19,923 nucleotides of DNA from Candidatus Thorarchaeota archaeon (GCA_048882385.1 JBHLRQ010000056.1:1-19923), one strand, 5' to 3'; positions 1 to 19,602 are shown, counted from the stretch's first letter. The notes: a model not told the origin generated them from the sequence alone. Numbers and translations: made by a program.

Positions 1-924
1 TTTGGCGATTTCTACGCATTGAAGGGAGCATCCTTCTTTGCAAATAAACGAGAATTCCTCGGTGTAATCGGAGCCAGTGGAGCAGGTAAGACAACAGTGC
101 TTCGAGTTCTTACAGGACAGATCAAACCGACAGATGGTCAAGCCTTTGTTGGGGGTTATGATGTCACTAAGAAGTCAGCTTTGATCAGTCTACTCGTTGG
201 CTACGTCCCACAACTCGAATTCCTGAGTCTATACTATGACTTCAATCCTCTGCAGAATGCACAGTTCTTTGGTAGACTCTTTGGTATGAGACCAAAGGAG
301 ATTGAAGAACGCGCCAGGAATATTCTCACAATCCTAGGATTTGATGAAGAACTTATCACAAAAAGAGTGGATCGACTCTCTGGTGGAGAACGTAAGAGAG
401 TATCGATCTGTCTTGGTATGATTCACGACCCACCCGTTTTGTTGCTTGACGAACCAACAACCGGGCTGGATGCACACTTACGTCATGAAACCCTGAACTA
501 TCTGAAGGAACTCAACTATGAGCTAGGGACAACGATGGTCATCATTAGCCACGATCTTGAGATTGTGGACTACTGCACCCGTGTCTGTCTGCTTGAAGAG
601 GGGAATGTCAGCCAGTTCGGAACACCGGAAGAGCTGATCTCATCACTCCCAGGAAAAGGAGAGAGCGTGAGAGTAGTTCTGAAGGCCATGACACCTGAGA
701 TAATCAGACGGGTAGAGTCCCTTCCAGGAGTGCAGTATACAGCTGCAGCGGGCAGGAATGCCATGAAACTGTTCATTGACAATCCGGCTGAACAGATCCT
801 GCCAATCATCTCGAAACTAAATGAGATGAAGCTACCCTTTGAAGAGGTCAGCCTTGTGGAGGCGGACTTCTTTGACTATTTTGCTGTGAAACCATGGAAA
901 GAAAATGGAGGAACCGCACCATGA
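1..924 (+). CDS. ABC transporter ATP-binding protein (ABC-2/DrrA-like exporter ATPase), 5'-truncated by the window edge
   Basis: Frame is open from base 1 (FGDFYALKG...). It contains Walker A GASGAGKT, Q-loop YVPQ, signature LSGGE, Walker B LLLDEPT and H-loop SHD, plus a C-terminal accessory extension. Stop TGA 922-924 overlaps the next ATG (ATGA). Confidence 0.95.
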   Translation, partial: FGDFYALKGASFFANKREFLGVIGASGAGKTTVLRVLTGQIKPTDGQAFVGGYDVTKKSALISLLVGYVPQLEFLSLYYDFNPLQNAQFFGRLFGMRPKEIEERARNILTILGFDEELITKRVDRLSGGERKRVSICLGMIHDPPVLLLDEPTTGLDAHLRHETLNYLKELNYELGTTMVIISHDLEIVDYCTRVCLLEEGNVSQFGTPEELISSLPGKGESVRVVLKAMTPEIIRRVESLPGVQYTAAAGRNAMKLFIDNPAEQILPIISKLNEMKLPFEEVSLVEADFFDYFAVKPWKENGGTAP

Positions 925-3900
925 AAAAATATCATGTAATCATAGCTCTGCTGGTAGTCTGTGCTCTAGCAGGTATGCAGGTACAGACAGAAGATACAAT
1001 TCTTCAGCCTGTTACTAGTCCTATACTGCAGGCACCTTACTCAGTTGCAGAGATTGCACCTTTTAGCACAGCTATTGTTTGGTCTACTACAACTGGCAAC
1101 CAAGTTGTTGATCTTGTTGTGGATAACTTTGATGCAGACTTGAGAGAGGAGATAGCAGTCATCACACAGAATGGTTCTTTGTTCTTGTTCGATGACAATA
1201 GCTCATTGCTATGGCAACTTAACTTAGGCTCAACACCCCACGCATTGGTTTCGATTGATGGAACTGCTGCATCTGGTAAGGAGATACTAATCGGAACGGA
1301 TTATGGCGCTCTCGTTATTGGAGCTGACAAGACAGTTCAGATGAATATGTCTCTCCCAGAACCAGTATATGCTGTTGCAGCTGGACACTTTGATGCTGAT
1401 GGATTTGAAGAGATTGTGGTAGGTTGTGACGACTTCTATGTTTACGCTTTCGAGATTAACACAACTCCACTTTGGAGCTATCTTAGCAACGGCAGAGTGC
1501 GCTTGATTGCTGGTGCAGATATCGACTCTGATTCAAGGACCGAAGTAGTAGTGGCTTCTGAGGGTAAGCGGTTCACCCTCTTGCAAGACACTGGTGCTGT
1601 TGGATTCGAGAAGACGAGCGGCACAACAATTACTACTGTAGCCATGGGAGATATCACAACAGCTGGAAATTGGGACGTTCTCTATGGAAACGCCAACGGA
1701 ACGCTGAATGTTTGGTACGACACCGGAATCCTTGCGTTCAAGGTTGAACTAGGGAGTAGTATTTCAGCACTTGAAGTTGGAGACCTTGTCACTGGTGGAA
1801 GACATGAGTTCGCTCTTGGAACATCTTCTAACCAGTTGAGAGTCTATACATCAGCTGGACTACTTTCCTGGAACAAGACCATGGGTGGCCAACCAAATGA
1901 CATTCAGTTCCCTAATATTGGATTCACTCTAAATTCACAGGTTCTTGTGGGAACACCAAACACGACCAATATCTATAATTCTACAGGATGGCGTGTCAAT
2001 CAACTCACGGCTAATGGTTTCACTGGAGCGCTAAGTTTCGGAAACCTGGATGACTTTGAGGGAGATGAATACGCTTTCGGTACAAACTTTGGTGTTGTGT
2101 CTACGTACGGTCGCGACTTTGACAAGGATAACCTCGCAGACGCCCGCGAGATCATCATGGAGGGCACATTCTATGATGATAGTGACAGTGACAATGACAA
2201 CTTGAATGATGGGCAGGAAGTTCTGACATATGGGACTAATCCACTTCTCGCAGACACAGACGGAGATAAGCTGTCTGACTTTGCAGAAGTCATCACTCAT
2301 GGGACCGACCCCAATGAACCTGATTCAGATGGGGACAAGCTCACAGATTGGCAGGAAGTCTACTTGGGAACCAATCCAAATCAGGCAGACACGGATGGAG
2401 ACTCGTTAACTGATTACGAGGAAAATAACATCACGCTTACTCTCCCCACTGATGTTGACAGTGATGGAGATGACATCAATGACGCACAGGATGATAATGA
2501 TGGAGACGGTTTGACCAACATCCAAGAGGTGAGGCTCTCAAAGACCGACCCGAATGACGTTGATACAGACGGAGACACCATTACCGACTACTATGATGAC
2601 CAGGATGCAGACAACCTCGCAAACTGGAAGGAGATCCAGGTTGGCACAGGTCTCTATGACCCTGACTCTGATGATGATCTCTTGAACGATGGTTATGAGG
2701 TGAAGATCAGCAAGACATCGCCGCTGAACGAGGACACAGATGGAGACTCACTGACAGACTACGAAGAGGTCATGATTGTCCACTCTAATCCTCTAAAATC
2801 AGACGGAGATGAAGACGGTCTCTCGGACTATGATGAATATGTCGTCTATGGAACTGGAGTCTTGGATAGTGACAGCGATGATGATAATTTGGAAGATGGT
2901 GAAGAAGTCAATATCTACTTCACAGATCCGTTGAACAATGATACTGATTCAGATAACATCGCTGACGGATTAGAGGTCGATTTCTGGGGGTCAGACCCGA
3001 ATTCTGCGGACACTGATCTCGATAATCTTGATGACTTTGCAGAGTGCTACATCTGGAACACGAATGTCACAAACAGCGACACTGACGGAGATACGTTGGG
3101 AGATGGATTAGAAGTTCTCACGTATGGAACTAATGCGACTCTTGTGGATACAGACTTTGACCTCATTAGAGACCCTGATGAAGTGAAATACATAGTGAAC
3201 GGCTGGGACCCAACTAACCCGAACACATTCGATCCTGGCACCTTAGATGGAAACTGGGACTTTGATGGCGATTTCCTTACGAACTACGAAGAAATCTATC
3301 TGACGCGTACGAATCCAACATTGGTTGACTCCGGAGGGTTGCCCCTAACTGACGACCTTGAGGACAGCGATCTCGACGGATTGACCAACATCGACGAGCT
3401 TCGTGTGACATTCACCCATCCCAGAAGACCAGACACTGATGAAGACAAGGTAAAAGATGGAGATGAATGGTATATTCTGGGAACTGACCCCAACGATGAA
3501 GATAGTAATGATAACGGGGTTTCTGATTACGACGAAGATTTTGACGGTGATGGATTAAGCGATGGTGTCGAGTTGTACATCACGCTGACTTTCCACGATG
3601 ATGCGGATTCTGATGATGACTTCATCTCAGATTATGATGATGACGAGGACTCCGACTTCCTACCAAACTGGTTTGAGGTGGAGATGACAGGTACTGATCC
3701 TCAATACAACGACACCAATGATAATGGAACATTCGACTGGGAAGAAGACCCCGATGATGACGAGCTCAACAATCTGCAAGAGTTTCTCAATGACTGTGAC
3801 CCGCTCCTCGCAGATACGGATTCAGATCAATTGACTGATGGAGAAGAGGTCCTCTACACGAAGACAGACCCCACAGATAGTGATGATGACGATGACGGAA

Positions 3901-6900
3901 TTCTCGACGGTCAGGATGACAAAGATAACGACGGACTGACGAATCTCGAAGAATTAAGGACCTATAACACAAATGTTACTCTATGGGACACTGACGGAGA
4001 TCGCATCCGAGACGGACTCGAAATTCAAATAGGTCTCAATGCTACAAATCCAGATACTGATGGAGACTCCTTGTACGATGGATGGAATGACATCATTCCC
4101 AATGGCATCTATGAGCCACATCTAGGAGAACGTGGAGAGGATGTCAATGCAAATGGTGTCGTCAATGTTGGGGAAACCTCACCATTTGAAGTCGATAGCG
4201 ACTTTGATAATTTGGATGATAACGAAGAATACCTGTACGGAACTTCACCCATTGATGATGACTCTGATGACGACCTATTGTTAGACGGAGATGAGATATT
4301 CGAGTACTTTACTAATCCGCTCAATAATGATTCAGATTCGGATCTTCTGTCCGATTACACAGAAGTCGAACTGACTCTCACAGACCCTAACAATATGTGG
4401 TATAACGGAACACACACTCACTACATGATTGACAGCGATGGAGACCTGTTGATCAACGGGGATGAGATAGATATCTATGATACAAACCCCGGAGATTTCG
4501 ATAGCGACGATGACAATATTGGTGATGGAATGGAAGTCCTCGTCTATCTCTCTGACCCGCTGTCGAACGATAGTGATGGGGACGGACTTCTGGACAACGA
4601 AGAACTGTTCTATGGTACTGAAATCAACATTCAGGACACAGATGGAGATCAACTGGATGACTATGTTGAGATTGAACTTCTGGGAACTGACCCATTGTTA
4701 CCATCAACTTTCATGAATGGAACTCTTGATGGAGATCTAGACCACGATGGTGACGAATTGTCCAATCTAGTTGAGATCTATGGCTACTTCTCAGATCCAA
4801 TATCCAACGACACTGACATGGATGGTTTAGAAGACGGTTTCGAGGTGTTTGTGTCAGGCACATCACCCACAGACATGGATTCAGACAATGATCAGCTGAG
4901 TGATTATGACGAGTGGATGATATACGGAACAGACCCAAGCGGGAGTGATAGTGATTCCGATGGTCTTGATGATTATGTGGAAGTCTATGTGTCACTCACT
5001 TCACCAACTCTTTGGGACAGTGATGGAGATACCCTTAGTGATGGACTTGAGTGGAATGAGTATGGAACAGATCCGAACTCTGTTGACTCAGATAATGATC
5101 TTCTCAATGACAACATCGAGATAGACATTGGTACAGATCCAAACCTGAATGACACAGACTCAGATACATTATCTGACTGGGAAGAATGGATTCTCTACGA
5201 TACAGACCCAACTGAAGCAGACATTGATGAAGATGGATTGAATGATGCTGAAGAAATCGAGAACGGTACTGACTGGGAAAATTGGGACAGTGATTTCGAT
5301 ACCATCAGTGATGGAGATGAAGTGAACATCTACGAAACCTCACCAATTAGTGATGACACTGATATGGATAATTTAGCTGATGCTGACGAGATATTCAACA
5401 GTCACACAGACCCACTCCTTGCAGATACAGATGGAGACCTGATTCCGGATGATCTTGATGATCAGGATGCTGATGGTCTTACCAATCATGATGAGATCTA
5501 CCTCTATGAAACCAACTGCACAATGATTGATACTGACATGGATCTCCTTTCTGACTATGATGAGATCTTTGTATGGGACACATCACCAAAATTGTTTGAT
5601 AGCGATGAGGATGGTCTCGGAGACTGGGATGAGCTCTTCTACTGGTCAAGTGACCCCAACGACAGAGATAGCGATAATGATGGTCTAGAAGATTCAGAAG
5701 AAGCTCTCACATGGCACACATTACTCAACAGCACAGATACAGATAATGACCTCATCTCTGACTATGATGAGATAAAGGTCTTTGAAACAGATGCATTACA
5801 CTGGGACACTGATGGAGATTCACTCTCAGATGGTAATGAAACCTACTTCCTCAACACCTCACCGTTGCGAGAAGACACAGATGGAGATCTACTTCTCGAT
5901 GGAGAAGAAGTCAATGGATTCTACATGACATTCAACGTGAGCGGTGTAGTAACTAGCAGATGGGTCTATACGAATCCAAGATTGACAGATATGGATGGAG
6001 ATTCTCTTACGGATTACGAAGAGGTGACCAAAACAAATACTGATCCAACACTGTACAGCACTCAGGGAACTTCAGTATCAGATGCAGATTGGGATATTGA
6101 TGGGGACCAGCTAACCAACGCACATGAGATTCGCCTTACAAGGACCGATCCACGAGTCTATGATAGTGATTCGGATGGCAAGTCTGATGGTGCTGATGAC
6201 GAGGACAGAGACCTGCTCACCAACTACTGGGAGTGCGTTCTGACAAAGACCGATCCTAGAGACCCCGATTCAAATGATAATGGCATCTCCGATTACAATG
6301 ATGATCAAGATGGAGATACCCTCTCAAATGGTGAGGAGTGCAAGATTTATGGTACTGACCCAAGAAATAGAGACACAGATCGTGATGGATTATATGATAA
6401 CGAAGAGATTGAAGATTGGTTTACAGACCCATTGAACAAGGACAGCGACTTCGATCTGTTGGAGGATGGACCAGAGGTCAATACCTATGGAACCATGCCG
6501 AATCTCAATGACACAGATTCTGATCTACTGAGTGACTATGAAGAAGTATTCCTGACAGCGACTAGTCCGACAACAAACATGACACACCCTGGTGTCTTAG
6601 ACAGCCTCTGGGACTCGGACGGAGATGGTATCAATAACATCGACGAGCTGAGAGTCTATGGTACATTGCCAAATGATCGGGATTTCGACAACGATGATCT
6701 GGAAGACGGTGATGAACTTCTTCTAGGCACAGGGATCAATAATCCAGATACAGACATGGATTCGCTTACAGATGGTGAAGAATTCCACCTCTACGGAACC
6801 TCTCCGTTGTTAAATGATACAGATGGCGATCTGGTCGGAGACTACGACGAAGTCATTGTATACTTTACCAACGGAACACTTCCAGATTCAGACTTTGATT

Positions 6901-7718
6901 TATTGACGGACTATCAAGAGATTTTCGTGTACGAAACAGACCCGCTCTCAGAGGATACAGACATGGATCACGTCAGCGATTATGATGAGGTAATCACGTA
7001 CAACTCAGATCCCTTGTCACAGGACGGAGACCTTGATGGGCTGAGCGATTTCGAGGAAATCTTCGAATACTTCACAGATGCGCGTGATAATGATACAGAT
7101 GGAGATCTGATAGCGGACGGACTGGAAATCGAAGTCTACGAAACTGACCCGCTTATGGCGGATACGGATCTTGACACCATAGACGATTACACCGAAATCT
7201 TCGTGCTCGGTTCTGACCCATTGCGGCAAGATTCGGATCAAGACGGTCTCCTTGATGCCGTCGACTTCATGCCGACTGTGCATTGGATATTCCCGTTGAT
7301 AGGACTGGGAATTGTCCTGTTCATAGTAGCAGTGGGTGTGAGGCGGTTCCGAGAAACCTACATGGTAGAGGAGTACGTGACCAAGGCGGAGCCTGCGAGT
7401 CTGGGCTTGGAGCCAGGAATGGACATCGCTGTAGAGTACAAGATACGCGATGGACGAGTGATATTCGGTGTGGTCGTGCGGAATGGTGCTGACAACCCAA
7501 TGCAGAACGTGCAAGTGATACTGGGAATCCCAGACCTGACTGATGCGATAAAGACAGAGAATCTAGGCACAGTTGAACCAGACACGATTTCACTAGCTCA
7601 GATTGAGTTTGAGCTCCAGCCAGGTGCTGAGGGCGAGCTAGTTGGAATGGTCGAGTACGACAGTGTTGATGGCGAGCACAAAGTTGTGAACCTGAAGCCT
7701 GTCAGGATCGTGGCATAG
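921..7718 (+). CDS. Giant secreted, membrane-anchored calcium-binding repeat protein (about 2265 aa): signal peptide, FG-GAP/VCBS-like beta-propeller, TSP3-like DxDxDG repeat stalk, TM helix, cytoplasmic beta-sandwich
   Basis: Start placed at ATG 921 (MKKYHVIIALLVVCALAG, signal-peptide-like; GGAGG upstream; ATGA overlap) rather than 894. About 8 blade motifs (e.g. GHFDADGFEEIVVG, ADIDSDSRTEVVVA, GDLVTGGRHEFALG). Repeats of T(D/N/S)PxxxD(T/S)DxDxLxDxxE. TM segment WIFPLIGLGIVLFIVAVGV is followed by RRFR. Confidence 0.9.
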   Translation: MKKYHVIIALLVVCALAGMQVQTEDTILQPVTSPILQAPYSVAEIAPFSTAIVWSTTTGNQVVDLVVDNFDADLREEIAVITQNGSLFLFDDNSSLLWQLNLGSTPHALVSIDGTAASGKEILIGTDYGALVIGADKTVQMNMSLPEPVYAVAAGHFDADGFEEIVVGCDDFYVYAFEINTTPLWSYLSNGRVRLIAGADIDSDSRTEVVVASEGKRFTLLQDTGAVGFEKTSGTTITTVAMGDITTAGNWDVLYGNANGTLNVWYDTGILAFKVELGSSISALEVGDLVTGGRHEFALGTSSNQLRVYTSAGLLSWNKTMGGQPNDIQFPNIGFTLNSQVLVGTPNTTNIYNSTGWRVNQLTANGFTGALSFGNLDDFEGDEYAFGTNFGVVSTYGRDFDKDNLADAREIIMEGTFYDDSDSDNDNLNDGQEVLTYGTNPLLADTDGDKLSDFAEVITHGTDPNEPDSDGDKLTDWQEVYLGTNPNQADTDGDSLTDYEENNITLTLPTDVDSDGDDINDAQDDNDGDGLTNIQEVRLSKTDPNDVDTDGDTITDYYDDQDADNLANWKEIQVGTGLYDPDSDDDLLNDGYEVKISKTSPLNEDTDGDSLTDYEEVMIVHSNPLKSDGDEDGLSDYDEYVVYGTGVLDSDSDDDNLEDGEEVNIYFTDPLNNDTDSDNIADGLEVDFWGSDPNSADTDLDNLDDFAECYIWNTNVTNSDTDGDTLGDGLEVLTYGTNATLVDTDFDLIRDPDEVKYIVNGWDPTNPNTFDPGTLDGNWDFDGDFLTNYEEIYLTRTNPTLVDSGGLPLTDDLEDSDLDGLTNIDELRVTFTHPRRPDTDEDKVKDGDEWYILGTDPNDEDSNDNGVSDYDEDFDGDGLSDGVELYITLTFHDDADSDDDFISDYDDDEDSDFLPNWFEVEMTGTDPQYNDTNDNGTFDWEEDPDDDELNNLQEFLNDCDPLLADTDSDQLTDGEEVLYTKTDPTDSDDDDDGILDGQDDKDNDGLTNLEELRTYNTNVTLWDTDGDRIRDGLEIQIGLNATNPDTDGDSLYDGWNDIIPNGIYEPHLGERGEDVNANGVVNVGETSPFEVDSDFDNLDDNEEYLYGTSPIDDDSDDDLLLDGDEIFEYFTNPLNNDSDSDLLSDYTEVELTLTDPNNMWYNGTHTHYMIDSDGDLLINGDEIDIYDTNPGDFDSDDDNIGDGMEVLVYLSDPLSNDSDGDGLLDNEELFYGTEINIQDTDGDQLDDYVEIELLGTDPLLPSTFMNGTLDGDLDHDGDELSNLVEIYGYFSDPISNDTDMDGLEDGFEVFVSGTSPTDMDSDNDQLSDYDEWMIYGTDPSGSDSDSDGLDDYVEVYVSLTSPTLWDSDGDTLSDGLEWNEYGTDPNSVDSDNDLLNDNIEIDIGTDPNLNDTDSDTLSDWEEWILYDTDPTEADIDEDGLNDAEEIENGTDWENWDSDFDTISDGDEVNIYETSPISDDTDMDNLADADEIFNSHTDPLLADTDGDLIPDDLDDQDADGLTNHDEIYLYETNCTMIDTDMDLLSDYDEIFVWDTSPKLFDSDEDGLGDWDELFYWSSDPNDRDSDNDGLEDSEEALTWHTLLNSTDTDNDLISDYDEIKVFETDALHWDTDGDSLSDGNETYFLNTSPLREDTDGDLLLDGEEVNGFYMTFNVSGVVTSRWVYTNPRLTDMDGDSLTDYEEVTKTNTDPTLYSTQGTSVSDADWDIDGDQLTNAHEIRLTRTDPRVYDSDSDGKSDGADDEDRDLLTNYWECVLTKTDPRDPDSNDNGISDYNDDQDGDTLSNGEECKIYGTDPRNRDTDRDGLYDNEEIEDWFTDPLNKDSDFDLLEDGPEVNTYGTMPNLNDTDSDLLSDYEEVFLTATSPTTNMTHPGVLDSLWDSDGDGINNIDELRVYGTLPNDRDFDNDDLEDGDELLLGTGINNPDTDMDSLTDGEEFHLYGTSPLLNDTDGDLVGDYDEVIVYFTNGTLPDSDFDLLTDYQEIFVYETDPLSEDTDMDHVSDYDEVITYNSDPLSQDGDLDGLSDFEEIFEYFTDARDNDTDGDLIADGLEIEVYETDPLMADTDLDTIDDYTEIFVLGSDPLRQDSDQDGLLDAVDFMPTVHWIFPLIGLGIVLFIVAVGVRRFRETYMVEEYVTKAEPASLGLEPGMDIAVEYKIRDGRVIFGVVVRNGADNPMQNVQVILGIPDLTDAIKTENLGTVEPDTISLAQIEFELQPGAEGELVGMVEYDSVDGEHKVVNLKPVRIVA
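2115..7265 (+). repeat. Protein-level tandem repeat array, about 66 acidic Ca2+-binding units (bacterial TSP3-like/binary-toxin Ca-binding type)
   Basis: Manual count gives about 66 units. Most are 22-23 aa; about 15 are longer 34-35 aa units with a second DxDxDxLxN motif. The units are degenerate at the DNA level. Confidence 0.85.
7686..7718 (+). repeat. Direct repeat copy 1 (last 11 codons of the giant gene), attL-like
   Basis: GTGAACCTGAAGCCTGTCAGGATCGTGGCATAG is 29/33 identical to 8109-8141. The 20-bp core 7689-7708 is exact. Confidence 0.9.
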
Positions 7719-7773
7719 AACAGAAGCAGAAAGATTCATGGGTTTGGGTCGAGAAGTGTAATATGTGGATTCA

Positions 7774-8109
7774 GTGGAGAATGGGTTTCAACAGCAGAAT
7801 AGAGAATACAGACAAGCATTGTGGCTTAGGGACATTAAGGTCGGTGAATCACATCATCCAGCATTTGCATGGGGACGCTGGATAGTATTTCTCTGCATTG
7901 TAATCATGTTCCTAGCAGCTTTAACTGGGTTTATCCCACAATCCCTACAACAGGCATTCATAGTCCTATGGATTGCAATTGTAATATTCGGTGGAGTTCT
8001 ATCGTGTGTGGGATTCTCCAAGTCATTTGATAGAGGTGTGTATCCCTTATTTGCTGCTTTGGTACTCGTCGGAATCATTATGATAGTAATCTTGTACTAC
8101 CTTGGTTAG
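7774..8109 (+). CDS. Small 3-TM hypothetical membrane protein (about 111 aa), paralogue of 9389..9721
   Basis: Hydrophilic N-terminus followed by three hydrophobic segments. Motif GESHHPAFAWGRWIVFLC is shared with the paralogue. GTG 7774 is preferred over 7765 because it aligns with the paralogue's ATG. Confidence 0.75.
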   Translation: MENGFQQQNREYRQALWLRDIKVGESHHPAFAWGRWIVFLCIVIMFLAALTGFIPQSLQQAFIVLWIAIVIFGGVLSCVGFSKSFDRGVYPLFAALVLVGIIMIVILYYLG

Positions 8110-8141
8110 TAAACCTGAAGCCTGTCAGGATTGTTGCGTAG
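8109..8141 (+). repeat. Direct repeat copy 2 (orphan duplicate of the giant gene 3' end), attR-like
   Basis: GTAAACCTGAAGCCTGTCAGGATTGTTGCGTAG still encodes VNLKPVRIVA-stop. All 4 differences from copy 1 are at third codon positions. Confidence 0.9.
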
Positions 8142-8146
8142 ATAGT

Positions 8147-9229
8147 CTACTGTGGTACCACATCAGGAATCCGGTCTGCGGCCTTTCGAGGAAGGATGAG
8201 TACAACAACCATTAGTGCAATTCCAACAATGCAGAATTGATAGTATGGTGTCGGATCCTGCCAAGGATTCCAGACATCAACAACCGTCTCTATTGAAAGG
8301 TCGACTACCGCATCTTGGGTAATCCGTCTGAGTCGGACTGTAAACTCAGTCAAGTTCTCTCTGGGGAGCTCAAATTGCAAAGGACATGGCGATACAAACG
8401 TGACCGTTTCGAGTTCTAGGCTCTCATTAACCCCCGCAGGGATGATTGTGATAGCCACTGGAACTTCATTAGTTGAGAAGTTGGCAATCTTGACAAAGGA
8501 GTCTGAATCTCCCAACTCCACAGACTCATTGAATTCGATGATAGGACTTGATGCATTCAACTCGAACTGGTGATTATGACCTTCTTGCATCAGTTCATGT
8601 TGTATAGGCTCATAATCATGATTGTATGTGTAGACCAAAAGTGGAGCTATGAGGAGAGCACTGATTACTATTACGAAGATTATTGCATATCCACGTACAT
8701 CTGGTCTAGAACCCCAATTCTTGGACACAGAATAGTATAGGGGGAAAGTGAGAATCAGAAAGACACTTGGTCCCATATTCAGGAAGTCAGTAGAAGAATA
8801 AGTACCCCTGAATCCGAATCTTGCTAGAACTTCCACTGACTCATTGCTATATCGCGTTATACGAACAGCGAGTATCACTGATTCCTCTAGTCTTTTGCCC
8901 ACCAAAAAGACGTCTCTAATCTCAGTAACATTCTGTATGATTGCACTGGGATTCTCAAAGTCGCTGTTCTCATATAGATTGATGATAACGGGAGAACCAT
9001 TTGTGGTGAGTTCTTCGATCATTATCTTATCTGCAAACGTAGGTGTGAAGTCATAGGTGGGAGATTCATCACTTAGGACAAAGAACTGATCATACTCATG
9101 AGTATAATTAACGGGATATGTGGGAGTATACAGGGTCGTGAATGGAGCTGCCGCAATTCCGATAAAACCGATTAGAATGACCAATGATAATCTTCTAGTT
9201 AGGACTAATGTCTTGTCAGAGCTCCCCAT
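8147..9229 (-). CDS. Hypothetical 4-TM membrane protein (360 aa) with two related extracytoplasmic beta-rich domains
   Basis: TM-domain-TM-TM-domain-TM layout with several NxS/T sequons. Internal similarity: FVLSDESP..F...IEELTTNGSPVII...VRITR vs FELNASSP..F...IANFSTNEVPVAI...VRLRR. Confidence 0.8.
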   Translation of the reverse strand: MGSSDKTLVLTRRLSLVILIGFIGIAAAPFTTLYTPTYPVNYTHEYDQFFVLSDESPTYDFTPTFADKIMIEELTTNGSPVIINLYENSDFENPSAIIQNVTEIRDVFLVGKRLEESVILAVRITRYSNESVEVLARFGFRGTYSSTDFLNMGPSVFLILTFPLYYSVSKNWGSRPDVRGYAIIFVIVISALLIAPLLVYTYNHDYEPIQHELMQEGHNHQFELNASSPIIEFNESVELGDSDSFVKIANFSTNEVPVAITIIPAGVNESLELETVTFVSPCPLQFELPRENLTEFTVRLRRITQDAVVDLSIETVVDVWNPWQDPTPYYQFCIVGIALMVVVLILPRKAADRIPDVVPQ

Positions 9230-9388
9230 AACTAATCATAGTTCATTTACATTATTGACCAATTAAGTTTCTTATTCGAGCGTTCAAACCTTACGAATGA
9301 CACATGAATCACGCCATGATTGAGGTATAATTCCGATACATGGGTAAGATTCAATACTCTAACCGAGTAAATACGACTGGTTGAATCA

Positions 9389-9721
9389 ATGGAACGAGGA
9401 TGGGAGCTAGAGGAAGATAGAAAATCTATGAGAAGCCATTGGTATAAGAACACGAAATATGGCGAGACCTATCATCCTGCTAGTCTATGGGGACGCCTGA
9501 TAGTCTTGGCCTGCCTTGTGGTCATGTTCATTCTATGGGTCACGGACATTGTTCCATACGCTCTGCAGCCAACTGTCATTGCATTACTGGTGATGTTCAT
9601 GATCGCAGGGTTTGTTCTCACCATCGTGGGATTCTTCAGGTATTATGGAAGAAATGCAATCATTTTCCTAGTAGTAGTGATTTCAGTTGCACTCATTATG
9701 ATTTGGTTCTCAATACCGTAA
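9389..9721 (+). CDS. Small 3-TM hypothetical membrane protein (110 aa), paralogue of 7774..8109
   Basis: Motif GETYHPASLWGRLIVLACLVVMF, with the same length and hydrophobicity pattern as the upstream paralogue. Confidence 0.8.
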   Translation: MERGWELEEDRKSMRSHWYKNTKYGETYHPASLWGRLIVLACLVVMFILWVTDIVPYALQPTVIALLVMFMIAGFVLTIVGFFRYYGRNAIIFLVVVISVALIMIWFSIP

Positions 9722-9736
9722 TCTACTGAGAACAAA

Positions 9737-10942
9737 TTAGGATTGAAAGTTGTCGGTAGAATAAGCCCCCACGGCTCTTGCGATCTCTTGGACCTCCTCA
9801 GGATGTCCAAATAGCGCACAAGGTGTGTCCTCGTTCGTGAGGAGATGCTCATTCTCACGGATTGTTGTGAACAGAGGGCTTGCTAGGCCATCCCTGAAAG
9901 ATGAAGTGGACAGGTTGTGGGTCGCAAGGTTCGAAACCGGACATGCAGTGAGGTCTCCCTGAGGAGTCACATGAGCAAACCCTCGACCTGCAGAAACGCA
10001 ACCACCGAAGTAGTCTTCGTCACCAGGCGAGTGAATTACATAGAGAGAGTTTTTCTTCCGATACTCAAGAACACGAGCGCGGAACTCAGCACGTTCTTCA
10101 GGGCTCAGCATCAGGGACTTGTCATAAGACCCACAGGAATCTCCTGTAAGGTTTTCAGCCATAACTGGGATGTATTCGATGAATACACTCACCAGAACTC
10201 CGAGCTTTACATAGTGGTCAAGGTTCTCCTTCTGCATCCAATATTGATAGTTCCGATTGGTGATTGTCACTGAGATGCCAGTAGGAACTCCTGAGGACTT
10301 CAGCTTGGACAGGGTCTCGAGAGCCTTTCGGTGGACTCCTTTACCTCTCCTAAAATCAGTCTGGTCCTCACTTCCCTCAACACTAACAATCACTGCGACA
10401 TTCTTTGTTGAACGTAACCGTTCGTGATCATTGCGTGTGAGGGCTGTCCCGTTGCTCAGGATGATGAAGAAGCGGTCCTTGAAGGACTCACACAGTTCGA
10501 GAAGACCACGGAACAGAAAGGGTTCACCACCAGCGATGATGAATCCAAAGACTCCCTGTTCAGCAGCGTCTCTGATGATGCTATACCACTGCTTCCAATC
10601 AAGTGTTGGTCGCTTCTCAGAACAGTCTGTTCTGGTCATGGTATCCAGGGTGCCCACAGCAGCAGCATAGCATCCGGCACAACTTAGGTTACACTTCGAT
10701 GTGATACTCAGGATCAGGAAAGGAGGAACTTTGAGTCCCACACTTTCGGCCTCTCTTCGAAGTCTCTCAGTCTTCTTGTAAGACCGGGCAAGTCTGATTC
10801 CAGCCCTAAGGTACCTTGGGTTACGAAGGACCCAGGGTACAAAGAGCTTCGTCATGTTGGGATCCAGTCCATCAAGGACGTTTCCCATGAGTCCGGGTGT
10901 AGGTATTCCATTAGCGTGCTTCTTGACTGTTGTTGTTATCAT
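9737..10942 (-). CDS. Radical SAM protein with C-terminal SPASM/twitch-like domain (COG0535-like)
   Basis: CxxxCxxC motif CNLSCAGC, GGEP motif, SNGT, and C-terminal GCVSAGRGFAHVTPQGDLTACP...C. GTGTGA RBS-like sequence upstream. Confidence 0.92.
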   Translation of the reverse strand: MITTTVKKHANGIPTPGLMGNVLDGLDPNMTKLFVPWVLRNPRYLRAGIRLARSYKKTERLRREAESVGLKVPPFLILSITSKCNLSCAGCYAAAVGTLDTMTRTDCSEKRPTLDWKQWYSIIRDAAEQGVFGFIIAGGEPFLFRGLLELCESFKDRFFIILSNGTALTRNDHERLRSTKNVAVIVSVEGSEDQTDFRRGKGVHRKALETLSKLKSSGVPTGISVTITNRNYQYWMQKENLDHYVKLGVLVSVFIEYIPVMAENLTGDSCGSYDKSLMLSPEERAEFRARVLEYRKKNSLYVIHSPGDEDYFGGCVSAGRGFAHVTPQGDLTACPVSNLATHNLSTSSFRDGLASPLFTTIRENEHLLTNEDTPCALFGHPEEVQEIARAVGAYSTDNFQS

Positions 10943-10959
10943 TGTGTATCACACTTGGT

Positions 10960-11079
10960 GGCGGCGCGTATGCTATTCTTTGTGTCAAAAGTATATAAGA
11001 TGTTTGGTAAGCGCCAAACGTTACAATAAGTGCCAAACGTTTAAATATCTTCAAAATTAGATAGAGGATACGCGCCGCC
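10960..11079. promoter_or_regulatory. Symmetric divergent promoter region bounded by 12-bp perfect inverted repeats
   Basis: GGCGGCGCGTAT (10960-10971) and ATACGCGCCGCC (11068-11079). TATA-like boxes CTTATATA (minus, 10992-10999) and TTTAAATA (plus, 11040-11047) each lie exactly 20 nt from the nearer repeat. Confidence 0.75.
11002..11041. promoter_or_regulatory. Putative transcription-factor operator (palindrome plus direct repeat)
   Basis: GTTTGG-N6-CCAAAC at 11002-11019. TAAGYGCCAAACGTT occurs twice, at 11008-11022 and 11027-11041 (14/15 identical). Confidence 0.65.
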
Positions 11080-11110
11080 CATGTTTTACATATGGGGGAG
11101 ATGAAAGTCA

Positions 11111-11602
11111 ATGAAAAAGGTACTAATCCTATATGATACAATGTTTGGGAATACTAGAAAACTCGCACTTGAGCTCGCCACAGGAATCCAACAAATCGAA
11201 GGTATCACAACCAAGGTTGGCAATGGAGATACCCTTGAGAAAGAAGAACTCTCAAAGTATGATGCAGTCCTCTTCGGTGGCCCCACTCGTGCCTTCAAAG
11301 CTACACGAGGTGCTATGAACACCATAAAGGTAGCAGGGAAAATCGGACTCGCTGGGAAGGTCGTTTCAACCTTTGGCACATTTATGGCAGGGAATGAGTC
11401 CAGAGGTGTGAAAGGAATGGACAAGAAGCTCCGTAAGCTCGCACGTGATGCCAAAGTGATCAGTCCAGGTTTCTCGGCCAAGGTCGAAAGTCCCAAAGGA
11501 CCAATCAAAGCTGAAGAGATTCCTAAGGCTCATGAGTGGGCAAGAAGATTTGGACGAGAGGTTCTCGAGCACACTCCTCAGACTCTAGTACAAATAGCAT
11601 AG
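11111..11602 (+). CDS. Flavodoxin-family protein (FMN-binding)
   Basis: N-terminal FMN phosphate loop LILYDTMFGNTRKLA, plus YDAVLFGGPT and GKVVSTFGT motifs. 163 aa. Confidence 0.9.
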   Translation: MKKVLILYDTMFGNTRKLALELATGIQQIEGITTKVGNGDTLEKEELSKYDAVLFGGPTRAFKATRGAMNTIKVAGKIGLAGKVVSTFGTFMAGNESRGVKGMDKKLRKLARDAKVISPGFSAKVESPKGPIKAEEIPKAHEWARRFGREVLEHTPQTLVQIA

Positions 11603-11629
11603 ACCCTTGAATCACATTACTTAAGGGTC
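11602..11629 (+). terminator. Hairpin immediately after the flavodoxin stop (possible terminator, processing site or operator)
   Basis: GACCCTTGA-N10-TTAAGGGTC forms a 9-bp stem with one G-U pair. There is no U-tract, and it overlaps a TATA-like TTACTTAAG upstream of the next gene. Confidence 0.35.
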
Positions 11630-11651
11630 AGGATAATTTGCAGAGGGGGCT

Positions 11652-12341
11652 ATGTCACTAGAACTCTATAGTGCGGCCTTCTGGGTCGTAGCAATAATCT
11701 CAATATTCCTTCAGGACAGAAAGGCAGAGTCCGGAGATACAAAGGTCGCCTCTGTAACCACTGTGGTCAAGTTCATACCTGCACTGTTGGCGGTCGTCTT
11801 TGCTGTAATCCACCGAACGCCGACAATGTTCACACTTCTGCTTGCAGCAGCCTTGGTATTCTGTATGCTGGGAGACATAGGAATGGAGATAGATCTCGTT
11901 CCTGGAATTGGAATGTTTCTGCTAGCTCACATCCTGTACACAACCAACTTTCTGTGGCATTCTATTGTTGCAGGGCTGATGATGACTCCTATACTGTTGG
12001 GTATGGGATGCATGATTCTTGGTGTGGTCTTCGTCATCTTGTTCATCAGATATTTACGTGCTGATGGACCTGAGATACCACCATTTATCCTTCGGGCGGG
12101 TTCACTCTACTTTATCATAATATGCGCGACTCTAAGCACCTCCCTGCTCCTCTGGCAGGCGGCTCCAGCTTCACTTGGGTATCTCCCTGTGCTTGGGGCA
12201 CTCATATTCATCATATCGGACTCTTTCATCGCTGTGAACGAGTTTCGTCGCAAGATACCTCGTCATGAGTTCTACATAATGCCGACCTATTACATCGCAA
12301 TATTCCTACTGTCACTCAGTGTGTTTGTGTATGGGTTGTAG
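11652..12341 (+). CDS. YhhN/TMEM86 family (lysoplasmalogenase-like) membrane protein
   Basis: About 8 TM helices with family motifs KxxP, LGDIGM, FLLAHILY, FIISDSF and TYY. Confidence 0.85.
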   Translation: MSLELYSAAFWVVAIISIFLQDRKAESGDTKVASVTTVVKFIPALLAVVFAVIHRTPTMFTLLLAAALVFCMLGDIGMEIDLVPGIGMFLLAHILYTTNFLWHSIVAGLMMTPILLGMGCMILGVVFVILFIRYLRADGPEIPPFILRAGSLYFIIICATLSTSLLLWQAAPASLGYLPVLGALIFIISDSFIAVNEFRRKIPRHEFYIMPTYYIAIFLLSLSVFVYGL

Positions 12342-12437
12342 TTCTAGACTGAAATAGCGTTCCTATATCAAATTGGACATCATACAAGTAGCAAAGTTTG
12401 ATAAGAACATTAGCTAAACGTGCCGGAGGGAACACGA

Positions 12438-13694
12438 TTGAACACTGATGAGCTACTGGAAGCAATTGATGACAAACTTTCGAAGTTAAATTCTCCAGTT
12501 GAGATTCAACCAGAGAGCATACGTCCAGTAGCGATAATGACCAGGGAAAGAAGGCAGCTAGGAGACCTAGAGAAGGAATTCCAACAAGTACTCGACATGA
12601 TAAAGTACGACGAACGCGTTCCAGGACTCATTACAAGACTGGCTGACGTGCATCTGCGAGAAGCCAATTACGGTCGCGCCATAATCCTCTATGAGATATC
12701 TCTTGGACTTGATAGCGACCAAGTTGGGGCATGGATCCATATGGGTCTTGCATACTTGTTAGTGGGAGACCCAATGGATGCAATCAGTTGCTTGGGTAGC
12801 GCACTTGCTATTGAACCAAACAACACTCTTGCACTAGTTTATCTCGCAAGCGCAGAACTAAGGCGAGGAGAACTGGACAAGTGTAATGAGAACCTAGACA
12901 GAGTTCTTCAGCTTGATCCAAACATGTCTAGAGCGATGCTAGTCAAAGGGAAGTATTTTCGAAAGAATGGAGAGCCAGAACTCGCGGTGACTTGGTTGAG
13001 ACGAGCAATAGCAATGGACCCACAATTTCTACCTGCTCTCATGGAGTTGGGACAGGTGTATCATTCTCTAAAGAGATATGATGAAGCGATTGAAACGCTA
13101 AACAAAGCCATAGCACTTGATAGTGAACAAGCATATGCTCTGGCTGCGATGGGAGATGTTTATTCAGACCAACATGACCTTGAATCTGCACTCTATTACT
13201 ACGACAAAGCAGTCAGCATAAAATTCGATGACCCCGAACTCTGGATCAAAAAAGGAGACATCCACAAGTTCCTGAAATCGTATCAACAAGCAGCAAATGC
13301 CTATCAGAAGGCAATCAATGCAAACCCCGAACATGTTAGAGCTTGGGTTAAGAATGGTGCAGTTATGCTTCTACTAAATGATGAAGGTACAGCTCTTGAG
13401 TACCTCAATACAGCACTTGCGCTTGAACCAAACAACGCAGAGGTGGCTCATCAACGCGGACTAATCTACTACTCGTTAGAGAGATATGATGAGGCTTTAA
13501 CCGATTTTGATGCTGCTTTTGCTGTAGATCCGTCGAATCCCATGCACCTCTACTATCGAGCAATGATGCTGGAATTCCTGGAAAAAAAACCGGATGCAAA
13601 ACGAACCTGGCAGGTGGCTATCAAGCTTTTTGAAGAGATGGGTGATGAAACAAAGGTTGCAGAGTGTTCTGCACGGATGAAGCGTCTGACGTGA
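12438..13694 (+). CDS. Tetratricopeptide repeat protein (about 10 TPRs)
   Basis: 34-aa periodic motifs (AWIHMGLAY...A...EP, ALMELGQVY...A...LD, AWVKNGAV...ALALEP). TTG 12438 has GGAGG 8 nt upstream and is preferred over GTG 12420. Confidence 0.9.
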   Translation: MNTDELLEAIDDKLSKLNSPVEIQPESIRPVAIMTRERRQLGDLEKEFQQVLDMIKYDERVPGLITRLADVHLREANYGRAIILYEISLGLDSDQVGAWIHMGLAYLLVGDPMDAISCLGSALAIEPNNTLALVYLASAELRRGELDKCNENLDRVLQLDPNMSRAMLVKGKYFRKNGEPELAVTWLRRAIAMDPQFLPALMELGQVYHSLKRYDEAIETLNKAIALDSEQAYALAAMGDVYSDQHDLESALYYYDKAVSIKFDDPELWIKKGDIHKFLKSYQQAANAYQKAINANPEHVRAWVKNGAVMLLLNDEGTALEYLNTALALEPNNAEVAHQRGLIYYSLERYDEALTDFDAAFAVDPSNPMHLYYRAMMLEFLEKKPDAKRTWQVAIKLFEEMGDETKVAECSARMKRLT

Positions 13695-13696
13695 GC

Positions 13697-16600
13697 CTAC
13701 TCTATCACTTCAGGCAGATCACTCAATATTTCCACAGTATCAACACTGTCTGAGATCACCAAATAGCCTGCAAGACTTGTACTCTCGTCTACCTTAAGTG
13801 CACGTCGTTCACGTAGTCCAAAGATTTGCGCCTTTTCGGAGAGTGTATCAATGTAGACCGTTTCATCCCACTTGTACGCTGAGATGATCCCAAGAACAGT
13901 ACTATCATTAGGACTCTCATACGCCCCCCAACTTGAGCGTCCTGCGAAAAGATCGACACCAATGGTGGTGGGTTCATAGACTAGTCTCTTTCGCTCCTTG
14001 ACTGTGTGGACCCTACTACATGGATTACCACCAGGCATTGGAATTCCTCTGAAACCCAATAGTGGCTTGTTCCACTGCTTGCTCGTGTTTGTGAGCGAGA
14101 TTTGTATATACAAGAGGGGTGTTCCAGGTAGTATGAGATACTGAGCTGTGGCTTTCAAGCCATTTAGACCGGGACTGTGTGTTAGAGTCGTTGCAGCTTT
14201 GAAACCAACCCATGGACCAATCTGATCATTCGAAACATCCCATGTTTCCTCTTGGAGTGCAGACTCCCAATCCCATACATCGAGTCCGATGAGCATAGGA
14301 TTAAGACCACTGTAAACTTTATTCATCCAGACGAAGGGACCAACTTCAGGAAATGTGTCATAGAGAACACTACTTTTTCCTTCTTTCCCATATTTGACCA
14401 GACTTCCACCCTGTTCGGGGCAAGTACCAATGTAATAACCTCCAGTGCTTAATGAGTGGAGTGTAGCATTTTCTGCCTTGGTGACATGCCGTTCGACTTC
14501 GAGAGTGGAATCAAAAACTACTGCAGATAGGGACTTCCGATAGATCCGTGACTTGAAACGAATCTCAATCTCACCATTTCCACGAAACCAAGAGCCATCC
14601 TCTGAAGCTTTGATCCTCAATGGATGAGAGAAGGGTTTGTCCAGCCCAACCTCATCGACCCTCATCTCAACCTCTCTATTACCGTTGGTAGTTATGCCAT
14701 CGGGCAGTGTCAGACGAATATCTGCATCTAGAGGGGTCTCATGAATAAGTCGCAGACGGAGTTCATACTCGCTTTCCTTTGAACGATCGACAAGAATCGG
14801 ACTTGGAGTTTTCCTACGATACTTGTTCTTCTTGGGGGATATCTCTACTTCAATGTCTGACCGTAGGTCGATAATCTCTGTATCTGGTTCATCTTTTCCG
14901 TTGAGCTTTCGATAGAGTGCTCGTACTTTACGCCAATCACCATCTCCGAGATACATTCTATGAGCAGTCTTCGTTAGATTTTCGCCAGGTTCGAGGTCAG
15001 GCAATCTATATTCAGCTCTAGTGACGTCCCATCCTCTCATGACTTTCAGCTCTTCTGCATGTTCAGATTCCCAGAGGTATCCAAGCAACAATCTCTCTTG
15101 ATGGCGGTGCATTGCAATCCAAGACTCATGATAGTCCTTTGCAGATTTGGGAAGCTGCCTCCAGCCGCCCCAGTCAATCGAGTCCAGGTTGTAGATTTCT
15201 CCTCGCAAGGGTACAAAACCTTGATCGAACACTCCTCCAAACCACCCCACGGTTCTGAGTCCGAGATTGTCGATTTTGGATTCACCAGCGTTCTCAAGTT
15301 CTGATATAGTTTCAAGAATGTTGATACCAGAATGCAATCGATATGTTAGCGTCTGATGTAGTCCGGGTCGTTCTTGAAAATCGCCCATCAGCTTAACTTC
15401 TGCATATTCGTTAGATGACTTCAGTTCAATCTTAGGAGTGAGCCTGCTCCACTCATCCCCTCCTGATGGAAACGGATATCCAATTTCAATACCTAAAATT
15501 CGCCAACCGCCTAGACTCCTGTTCAACGGTTTGTAAGTTAAAGAACGAAATCCCGTAGCGGGTCGATCATTCATGACTGCGCGGATGCTCTCAGTTTCAA
15601 GAACTATTCGTTCATCCATACTCTTGTAGACCACTGCACCTTTCACGCCTATAGCAGGAATGTTGAACTTCTTTGAACTGACCCTAACAGGTTTTCCTTT
15701 GTAATCTAGATCGAGTGTGTAATCGATGGATATTAGATTTCCATTAAAGTTCTCGCTGGATATCGTGACCTGTTCTTCAATAACTTCACTAGGTTCCAAC
15801 TCAAAATTGAATCTCTCAGGAATGATTCTAACACCCTTGGGGGGTGCTAGACTAATTTCGCCCTGCAGTTTCTTACCTGTATTGTTGCGTGCTCCAAGAC
15901 CTATTGTGCTTGATCCAACCTTTGAGATAGATGGATAGACAGGTCCAGGAGTTACGGTCACAGCCTCAATAGGGATGAGTCCACTATAGAGTGAGATTGA
16001 GTCTTTACCTATCGTGAGAACCCACTCAGCAAAGGTTGCAACCTTCTCATCTGCATTTGTTTCACGATTAATAGGACGTGCAGAATTAGAGAGGGAGTAG
16101 AGTCCGGTAGTTGTAAACGACTCTCCCGAATCTATTTTTCCAGTTGTTTCTCCTTCTATCTGGAAAACAATATCCTTCTCGGGTTTAACGTCAACTGAGA
16201 ACTCTAGCACCTGTTCAAGATTGTTCTGAATTGTCAGCTCAACAGGATATTGATCATATCCTATGTACGCAGTATGATTCTTTGGCTGAACACTCGCTGA
16301 AACCGTATTTCCATCAAGTGTTAATCGGAATGCACAGATTCCCTTTGCTTCCCGATCGACTTTGATGTCAAGAGAGTCACCATTCTCACCCTCAAACTTG
16401 TACGTGAAGATTCCAATCCCATCTTCAACCACATCATCAGGTTCTTGCTCGATTTCTCGTTTATACGAGTCATACCAACCATATCTTTTGAAGAAAGGTC
16501 TGAACATGTCAGTCATTAGAATTGCAGGGATATGCGACTCCATTAGCACTCTTGTGCCTGGAACCCAGTTGTATCCAGTACGCTTGTACAGAGGAAGTGC

Positions 16601-17002: not shown

Positions 17003-17136
17003 TCTGATTGCCTCCTAGGAAAAGCGCAATCTCCCCGCTCTGGCAGTTCCTAATAAGGAATGCGAAAAACGCGATTATCGTTTATTATTTGAATTTAACA
17101 AAACAGTTTTTGAGTGCTAATAAATAAGACACAAGC

Positions 17137-17175
17137 AAAAATGAAAAAGAGAGAGATGAGGGGTCTATCCCCCTC
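17137..17175 (-). terminator. Probable terminator of the minus-strand operon
   Basis: GAGGGG/CCCCTC stem (17158-17175) just after the stop at 17182, followed on the minus strand by TCTCTCTCTTTTTCATTTTT. Confidence 0.6.
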
Positions 17176-17181
17176 TATTTA

Positions 17182-17934: not shown

Positions 17935-17944
17935 TTCATACACC

Positions 17945-18574: not shown

Positions 18575-18576
18575 TA

Positions 18577-19524: not shown

Positions 19525-19550
19525 TGTTATTCACTCCAATAAAGTTGGAT

Positions 19551-19589
19551 GGAGAGTATCTTCAAAGTTTCCATTCGAAGACACTCTCC
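19551..19589 (-). other. Intergenic 16-bp RNA stem-loop
   Basis: Minus strand reads GGAGAGUGUCUUCGAA-UGGAAAC-UUUGAAGAUACUCUCC, giving 14 Watson-Crick pairs and 2 G-U pairs. Confidence 0.7.
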
Positions 19590-19602
19590 GGGTTCATCAG
19601 AC

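Follow-up and report, generated by a model that had tools for sequence, protein, structure and literature searches.

A repeated gene tail bounds small gene cassettes behind a giant surface-protein gene in a genus of Candidatus Thorarchaeota

Organization of the locus

The stretch of DNA analysed here, referred to as the window, comprises 19,923 nucleotides (nt) from a Candidatus Thorarchaeota archaeon (GCA_048882385.1; JBHLRQ010000056.1, positions 1-19923). It represents an entire contig (C56) of the source genome G000, a metagenome-assembled genome (MAG) of 3.70 Mb in 256 contigs with 95% completeness. The window encodes a giant surface protein of 2274 amino acids (aa), and the last codons of its gene are found a second time 423 bp downstream, with one small membrane-protein gene in between. 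An earlier reading of the DNA (the sequence-only reading) had proposed that this small gene is a single 423-bp cassette inserted into the 3' end of the giant gene. The variable region of the window extends from 7719 to 11651, and the features of the locus are listed below.

894..7718, plus strand: giant surface-protein gene, 2274 aa (open reading frame, ORF); the anchor gene, whose tail is the putative docking site
7686..7718, plus strand: tail copy 1 (M1), the working gene tail and equivalent of attL; the tail peptide is conserved across the family
7689..7708, no strand assigned: exact 20-bp core, repeated at 8112-8131 (pattern search)
7719..7764, plus strand: leader of cassette 1, directly 3' of the stop codon; the stretch aagattca is common to the leaders of other c6 cassettes (by-eye comparison)
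7765..8109, plus strand: c6-1, small three-helix membrane protein, cargo of cassette 1 (ORF with GTG start, 114 aa)
8109..8141, plus strand: tail copy 2 (M2), the displaced intact tail that closes cassette 1 and equivalent of attR (nhmmer, E-value 5.7e-8)
8147..9229, minus strand: c15, 360-aa membrane protein with many N-x-S/T sequons, cargo of cassette 2 (ORF)
9298..9330, plus strand: M3, possible decayed third tail copy (tentative), at the position of the working tail of the relative G013 and in front of the c6' leader
9389..9721, plus strand: c6', paralogue of c6-1 (34-35% identity) and orthologue of the first gene after the tail in G013 (91% identity)
9737-10942, minus strand: radical-SAM gene (Pfam), a resident gene that tracks the core phylogeny
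11111-11602, plus strand: flavodoxin gene (Pfam), likewise a resident gene that tracks the core phylogeny
11652..12341, plus strand: YhhN-family gene, the conserved right flank (Pfam; synteny)

The protein encoded by c6-1 has three hydrophobic segments, and the TAG stop codon of the gene (8107-8109) overlaps the first base of copy 2. From an alternative in-frame GTG start at 7774 (111 aa, as in the database record) the leader is 55 nt long, and with this start the interval holds a 55-nt leader and one small three-transmembrane gene, as the sequence-only reading had described. The convergent c15 gene ends five bases beyond copy 2. A frameshift fusion of c6-1 with copy 2, which lies in the -1 frame relative to c6-1, was considered and rejected, as other spacings and frames are found after c6 in relatives. 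No Pfam family and no PADLOC family was found for c6-1; it matched itself alone in a word-based protein search, and its atlas matches, all with scores below 0.9, were generic small membrane proteins. The c6 family has 18 representatives among 1.84 billion proteins, and the best identity of c6-1 to other c6 proteins in the genus loci examined is 46%. No known RNA family was found in positions 7400-9800 at E-values up to 1, and no RNA run was among the public runs that contain the stretch.

The giant protein is composed of an N-terminal signal/anchor, a beta-propeller-like region and many Asp-rich repeats of the TSP3 type (Pfam TSP3_bac and beta-propeller families), and its gene is highly repetitive internally. 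An orthologue of approximately 2250-2300 aa is encoded in 81 of 87 genomes of the class, representing 17 of 17 genera. The tail EYD...GEH..VNL[KR]PV[KR]I[VT]A-stop is conserved throughout the class, and the C-terminal 65 residues are conserved genus-wide. A polymorphic toxin with downstream immunity genes was also considered for the locus and rejected, since the C-terminal domain of the giant protein is conserved, not polymorphic. At its start (894), the giant gene is overlapped by 31 bases by an ORF for an ABC-transporter ATPase (1-924), an arrangement that fits translational coupling. The giant gene of the relative G010 (contig C58) contains an in-frame TAG approximately 360 nt before its end, reflecting either a broken gene or an assembly error.

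The repeated gene tail

The two tail copies are identical at 29 of 33 positions, and the mismatches, at repeat positions 3, 24, 27 and 30, are all third codon positions (codon pairs GTG/GTA, ATC/ATT, GTG/GTT and GCA/GCG) and synonymous throughout; both copies translate to VNLKPVRIVA-stop. The repeat pair is confirmed, in that direct reading of the sequence reproduced the 29/33 repeat, the four synonymous third-position differences and the exact 20-bp core that the sequence-only reading had reported. With up to three mismatches allowed, the core has two matches in the window, and at least two matches were obtained in 0 of 200 shuffles. A search of the entire 3.70-Mb assembly with up to two mismatches, proposed earlier as a check, retrieved these two sites only. 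Because merely 25 of the 90 single-base changes possible in the ten tail codons are synonymous, the probability that four of four differences are synonymous is about 0.006. The synonymous-only differences are thereby compatible with two tails that have evolved as working gene ends, and fit the earlier proposal of two copies under coding selection and of an insertion or recombination scar. Copy 2 also lies in the reading frame of the giant gene (423 bp, i.e. 141 codons), which is a coincidence, since the spacings in relatives are mostly not multiples of three.

The core represents an imperfect 7-6-7 inverted repeat (AACCTGA-AGCCTG-TCAGGAT). The hairpin it can form has a 5-bp stem and is weak (z -0.9 and -1.5); when stretches of 39 nt and 101 nt were folded as DNA, neither strand did better than shuffled sequences (z -1.45 to +0.67).

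Variable gene modules in the genus

The locus was oriented and annotated in 24 species-level genomes of the genus. The flanks are fixed, with the giant gene on the left and the YhhN gene and a TPR gene on the right, and enclose zero to about five modules in changing combinations. The following modules were found.

c6, plus strand: small three-helix membrane protein
c12, minus strand: 130-aa membrane protein
c15, minus strand: 360-aa membrane protein
c19, minus strand: DUF998 protein (Pfam)
c21: 422-aa beta-helix/NosD-like protein (Pfam)
c18: small ORF without Pfam family
radical-SAM and flavodoxin gene pair
toxin-antitoxin (TA) modules: VapB-like with Fic/Doc in G015; HicB with HicA, and RHH/UPF0175 with PIN-like, in G007 (Pfam)

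The units are 0.4-1.9 kb in size, contain one or two intact genes each, and occur in both orientations with leaders of their own. As in integrons, a single platform carries a series of small units of one or two genes that can be exchanged. No PADLOC defence family was found for c6, c15, c12, c21, c19 and two cargo proteins from metagenomes.

Empty and alternative sites, which had been suggested as a check on the insertion, are both present among the relatives. In G011 (contig a), G014 and G024, the YhhN gene directly follows the giant gene at a distance of 47-64 nt, and a homologue of the 360-aa c15 protein is encoded directly after the giant gene in G022, G001 and G002; G022 and G001 have a single tail, to which both copies of the window matched. 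Other cargo found between repeats comprises the beta-helix protein, HicBA, VapB/Fic, the DUF998 protein and the 130-aa membrane protein. Of six genomes with the c12 module, four (G020, G010, G012 and G011, contig b) have a tail on either side of it and G006 has one on the left side only; the position of this module in the array may be first, second or later. The insert proposed earlier is borne out, none of the outcomes named as refuting it having occurred, but not as a single cassette: it is one of two in the window (the second at 8142 to approximately 9330), and the site is an array hot spot genus-wide. The c15 gene of the window and its homologues in G022, G002, G012 and G001 reflect either very fast evolution or exchange.

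Outside the tail-bounded region, a c6-family gene is located between the YhhN and TPR genes in G012 (locus L036), and other genes are found there in G017 and G006. Downstream of the TPR gene, either a gene for a 1101-aa GNAT-domain protein (window positions 13697-17002, minus strand) or a block of three to four other genes (c13, c14, c4) is encoded, which represents a second alternative-module site at this locus. Farther downstream in the window, minus-strand ORFs for a LiaF-C-like membrane protein (17182-18102) and an ArsR-type HTH protein (17945-18574) overlap by approximately 160 bases, and the start of the downstream ORF has probably been called too early.

Additional tail copies in related genomes

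A tail profile was built from 17 gene ends of the genus, in which the G010 row is not its true end. In a profile search, extra tail copies were found at module boundaries, in 12 of the 24 genus genomes: on the contig of the giant gene in G000, G004, G006, G007 (two copies), G008, G010, G015, G020 and G042, and on contigs without the giant gene in G011 (contig b, two copies), G018 and G005. A scan of metagenome contigs with a 23-letter pattern yielded 15 loci, several of them duplicates, with copies at L074 (two), L075 (three), L077 (two) and L079 (three). At L075, three near-perfect copies separate a unit encoding a 174-aa and a 390-aa (DUF6036-like) protein from a HicBA unit. A tail motif on a viral contig (L070/L084) was dismissed as fortuitous; it falls within the sequence for a receiver domain, that of a hybrid histidine kinase.

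All copies for which direction can be judged are co-directional with the giant gene or with the YhhN and TPR genes, and the sole reverse-strand profile match is weak (E-value 0.21, G010). When compared with the giant gene of the same locus, the right end of the copies lies within seven bases of the stop codon in 16 of 16 measured cases and within two bases in 15 of 16. The left boundaries vary, and the copies retain 17-44 nt before the stop codon, with one of 82 nt (L077). Copies close to the giant gene are intact, and those farther away have acquired non-synonymous changes or lack the stop codon. No native copy was singled out by comparison of M1 and M2 with the tails of relatives, or of the two copies at L077 with at least five relatives.

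The closest relative, G013, is 84, 85 and 81% identical (aa) to the window in the last 200 residues of the giant protein, in YhhN and in TPR, respectively, and 95% identical in radical SAM. Its gene order is tail, c6' leader, c6' and radical SAM, c15 being absent; its c6' is 91% identical to that of the window and is separated from the radical-SAM gene by the same 15-bp gap. The window segment 9298-9330 (M3) aligns with the working gene end of G013, the alignment extending upstream into the preceding codons, and its consensus score was reached by one of 500 shuffles. Compared with G013, the window thus has an extra segment from 7719 to approximately 9330 that contains two cassettes and a possible decayed third tail. 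Cassette 1 (7719-8141, with leader, c6-1 and the intact M2) would represent the newest insert, and cassette 2 (8142 to approximately 9330, with c15 and the possible decayed M3) an older one.

Assembly support

The stretch, or part of it, occurs in 20 public runs, and contigs of four of these (X3, X8, X9 and X10; three studies, with X3 possibly the source sample) were placed on the window. The junction 7718/7719 is bridged by contigs of X3 (6900-9272), X8 (7336-7837) and X9 (7655-7826), and the junction 8141/8142 by contigs of X3 and X10 (7933-9500). Another X9 contig (7890-8140) continues directly after copy 2 with 18 unlike letters, for which no match was found in 85 comparison loci and only control-level matches in 28 genus genomes. 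X3 and X8 also contain 151-nt contigs that match the tail alone and have other flanks.

The sequence-only reading had named two other origins for copy 2: it could be left over from a tandem paralogue of the giant gene that was deleted, or it could be a misassembly; the internal repeats of the giant gene and the fragmented state of the G000 MAG are in favor of such an origin. However, both junctions are bridged by independent assemblies from three studies, and the same pattern is found in many independent MAGs and metagenome contigs. The copies do not suit a randomly deleted tandem paralogue, because what they retain is only the final 17-44 bases (82 in one case), up to the stop codon in every instance. 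We therefore regard either origin as extremely improbable.

Gain and transfer of cassettes

The VapB/Fic cassettes of L077 and G015 are 81.5% identical over 712 nt, whereas the giant gene, YhhN and TPR flanks of the same two loci are 69.7, 66.1 and 67.7% identical, respectively; the nearest relative of L077, G011 (82% in the flanks), has an empty site. Similarly, L074 and G022 are 91% identical in the giant gene, yet the first module in L074 is c21 rather than c15, and HicBA is the first unit in G007 and the second, behind another unit, at L075. The c6, c12 and c15 modules are far more divergent than the core genes (e.g., 48% for c15 between G012 and G001, compared with 87-93% for core genes), and radical SAM (80-95%), flavodoxin (66-89%) and c19 follow the core genes. 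Judged by these identities, cassettes have been transferred between lineages.

No second tail copy was found at 19 loci of other genera (0/19; 2-6 kb downstream of the giant gene, up to 8 mismatches in 27; shuffled queries gave 0-1 matches per 20), and the giant gene is directly followed by the TPR gene in 10 of these 19. Among the loci examined, extra tails are restricted to this genus. Silent sites agree with this restriction: within the genus, identity at third codon positions is 0.71 in the last ten codons and 0.54 in 54 upstream codons (18 sequences; one-sided Mann-Whitney P 0.015), compared with 0.33 and 0.41 in other genera (19 sequences; P 0.92). One locus of another genus (G045, contig C1; L066) has a gap of approximately 5 kb between the giant and TPR genes, which contains short ORFs only (55-130 aa) and no tail copy, and may represent a different type of insert at the same hot spot.

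Alternatively, a long array may have existed in the ancestor of the genus, with present diversity produced by differential deletion only and no ongoing gain or transfer. No conflict of order is seen among the arrays, direct repeats favor deletion, and radical SAM, flavodoxin and c19 track the core phylogeny, all of which would agree with loss. On the other hand, the VapB/Fic cassette is much more alike between two lineages (81.5%) than are its flanks (66-70%), and c6-1 is the first gene of its array and is followed by an intact tail, with a best counterpart of 46% aa identity in the other genus loci examined. The gradient from intact proximal to decayed distal copies suits successive additions, and in other genera the giant gene is mostly followed directly by the TPR gene. 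Loss as the only process is thus considered unlikely.

Proposed mechanism

We propose that the last approximately 30 bases of the giant gene serve as a docking site for small gene cassettes, and that single crossovers stack these cassettes with the newest closest to the giant gene; we assign this reading a probability of about 0.75. The earlier reading of an inserted cassette is supported in this wider form, as an additive, genus-wide cassette array on the last ten codons of the giant gene.

The incoming DNA would carry its own copy of the gene tail together with one or two cargo genes. We infer a single crossover between this copy and the resident tail, which would place the cargo directly behind the stop codon, rebuild an intact C-terminus (M1) and push the former tail downstream (M2). 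The displaced tail would no longer be translated and would decay; successive events would stack cassettes, the newest always beside the giant gene, and recombination between tails could delete or release cassettes. Recombination inside the tail, between the resident and the cassette-borne copy, would by itself account for a regenerated C-terminus, displaced co-directional copies with a fixed right end, a gradient from intact to decayed copies, and the same units at different positions. The right end would be fixed at the stop codon because selection requires the incoming copy to reach it.

For the crossover, we give about an even chance to homologous recombination by the host, with a circular (or linear) intermediate as in the model published for rhs C-terminal displacement. 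We lean to this route because no recombinase was found and because the left boundaries of the copies vary. A route that is neither homologous recombination nor a site-specific recombinase supplied in trans is a lesser possibility.

Recombinases and the nature of the proposed crossover

In G000, no match was found to PF00589 (Phage_integrase), PF16795 (Phage_integr_3), PF00239 (Resolvase) or PF01797 (Y1_Tnp), searches that matched 14, 3, 12 and 6 of 14 reference genomes, respectively. Nor was a recombinase domain or integrase fragment found in any cassette ORF scanned, in agreement with the earlier statement that the window holds no integrase. Eight of 28 genus genomes have PF00589 matches, of which most are on short contigs and none is at this locus; the 20 genomes without a match include the array-bearing G008, G010, G006, G004 and G042, and no link between the presence of an integrase and that of arrays was apparent across genomes. 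Outside the locus, the tail pattern gave control-level matches only, none of them on integrase-bearing contigs. As an observation in its own right, a chromosome-dimer resolvase of the XerA type is undetectable in G000 and in 20 of 28 genus genomes by the PF00589 search, in which all 14 controls were matched.

The same architecture could also be produced by a site-specific recombinase, of the tyrosine type or another, that is supplied in trans and acts on the 20-bp 7-6-7 core, in the manner of integron cassettes, CALINs (integron-type attC clusters lacking integrases) or cis-mobilizable elements. Such an enzyme is a strong rival to homologous recombination because the homology is very short and the conservation of silent sites is position-specific, being kept on the arms, free in the spacer center and beyond the right arm, and seen in this genus only. 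In favor of such an enzyme are the imperfect inverted repeat of the core, with its 6-bp spacer, the presence in every copy of the core and of the sequence up to the stop codon, and the integrases that occur, mostly on short contigs, in 8 of 28 genus genomes. Furthermore, integrase-less attC clusters are common in Asgard MAGs according to Ghaly et al. 2022 (PMC9668308). However, G000 lacks matches to all four families, and PF00589 is missing from 20 of 28 genus genomes, five with arrays among them; the cassette ORFs scanned hold no integrase or fragment of one, and the motif is confined to this locus. The core hairpin is not significant, and among 18 working tails, eight have a right arm disrupted by an Arg/Lys polymorphism. 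An enzyme acting in trans is thus a possible but less favored route.

Several points weigh against the docking-site reading in its homologous form, or limit it. Approximately 30 bases are short for homologous recombination. The P values for identity at third codon positions overstate significance because related genomes were treated as independent. The conserved silent sites fall on the two 7-base arms, with the spacer center and the last two codons free, and this arm-specific pattern would fit a protein-bound core site better than a uniform homogenisation. Recombinase-bearing mobile elements may be unbinned, since the genomes are MAGs (G000, 95% complete). The gene orders of all arrays found fit into a single series (c21/c19, c6, c18, c12, c15, c6', radical SAM), so that, on gene order alone, differential loss from a long ancestral array is possible. 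Not every boundary is marked by a tail: 10 of 24 genus loci have no extra copy, and G012 and G017 yielded weak candidates only. M3 was not significant when the window's own tail was used as the query (z 1.7), for which reason it is called tentative. Finally, no circle or empty-site junction was found in the assembled contigs of the four runs, and contigs drop rare forms.

Comparison with known systems

The logic of the gene-tail array is closest to rhs displacement, for which integrase-less arrays and homologous recombination through circular intermediates have been proposed by Jackson et al. 2009 (PMC2935791). There, an incoming copy of a conserved gene part recombines and the old end is shunted downstream, strings of old ends accumulate and fragment lengths vary; the exchanged piece is a functional toxin tip with its immunity gene and the core homology is long (PMC2935791). 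The Thorarchaeota loci likewise have displaced gene ends of variable length downstream of an intact gene, which arose by insertion, not by divergence. Unlike in rhs, the tail peptide is identical, the homology is approximately 30 bases, the payload consists of unrelated genes behind the stop codon, and the host is an archaeon; no incoming piece changes a C-terminal domain, as the tail peptide remains unchanged.

With integrons and clusters of attC sites lacking integrases (CALINs), as described by Ghaly et al. 2022 (PMC9668308), the arrays share one platform per genome, one- or two-gene units, toxin-antitoxin cassettes, intact proximal and decayed distal sites, integrase-less arrays and an enrichment in Asgard MAGs. 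In contrast to integrons, the sites are copies of the end of the anchor gene itself and not a separate attC family, there is no IntI, and each cassette has a leader of its own and may point either way. An IntI with attI was not found beside the array, as PF00589 gave no match in G000 or at the locus in any relative. Membership in attC (55-140 bp, paired R''/L'' and L'/R', single-strand hairpin) was considered and rejected on account of the approximately 30-nt repeat, the 5-bp stem and the shuffle-level folding. More tentatively, the locus could be an integron-like gene-capture platform in which the tail look-alike is the sole mobility signal, and in which genes would be captured and exchanged between species by an undescribed recombinase of the 7-6-7 site or by a host recombination machinery adapted to very short homology.

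Integration of e14 and phage 21 in icd of Escherichia coli, also supplies a replacement 3' end and displaces a pseudo-3' end to the far side with near-silent differences; unlike the Thorarchaeota units, e14 is a prophage, encodes an integrase and has a duplicated end of 163 bp (PMC6379469). The direct repeats at the Thorarchaeota loci span the 3' end of the gene, with the end regenerated and the old end displaced, as in icd. In contrast to e14, the units are small (0.4-1.9 kb), integrase-less and stacked, and no element-encoded integrase or excisionase was found in the cassette ORFs scanned.

Cis-mobilizable elements (CIMEs; PMC5704250) resemble the units in being att-flanked, integrase-less and arranged in tandem behind a protein gene with internal att copies; they are decayed integrative conjugative or integrative mobilizable elements (ICEs/IMEs) of several kb that depend on the integrase of a related element (PMC5704250). 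The modules might correspondingly be the last remnants of larger integrase-bearing elements, i.e. viruses or plasmids, that had integrated in the tail and decayed through accretion of the CIME type. Such integration is how attL and attR classically arise at a protein gene's 3' end, as with e14 in icd (PMC6379469); the accretion of elements in tandem, with att sites inside the array, has been documented (PMC5704250); and the cargo includes toxin-antitoxin pairs. We consider this origin improbable, since it has to contend with units of 0.4-1.9 kb that contain one or two intact genes, with the same unit recurring within the same limits in several genomes, with the lack of an integrase remnant in the units scanned, and with a sole viral-contig match that was due to chance in a histidine-kinase receiver domain. 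Tail-flanked, integrase-less units in tandem at one target gene are common to CIMEs and to the Thorarchaeota loci, and the latter differ from CIMEs in that they are single-gene units without remnants of transfer or integration genes in the scans; no ICE/IME gene remnants were found in the cassette ORFs scanned, and no integrase is linked to the tail motif.

Accretion at the 3' end of a target gene is reportedly exemplified by ICESt1/ICESt3 at fda of Streptococcus thermophilus. Tandem islands at tRNA genes carry partial tRNA copies at their borders, the older copies decay, and the islands grow by addition; unlike in these islands, the anchor in Thorarchaeota is the last ten codons of a protein gene, and the copies stop exactly at the stop codon. 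Modules mobilized at Xer/dif sites (pdif) are bounded by 11-6-11 sites in alternating orientation and use the host Xer recombinase, whereas all tail copies are direct and have 7-bp arms, and PF00589 is absent from G000. In a literature search aimed at known analogues, and not exhaustive, arrays of this kind were not found described for Thorarchaeota or for this gene.

Significance

How Asgard archaea, the closest known relatives of eukaryotes, acquire genes is poorly understood. The locus described here provides a precisely mapped, recurrent landing site at which single genes enter while the anchor gene is left undisturbed, with no recognisable integrase. It may serve as a testable model for cassette-wise gene flow in these archaea, which predicts circular intermediates composed of a tail plus cargo, and as a possible safe insertion site once these archaea can be manipulated. 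The cargo is biased towards small membrane or surface proteins and toxin-antitoxin pairs, and a giant surface protein is encoded next to it; diversification of the cell surface or of defence may therefore be a role of the hot spot.

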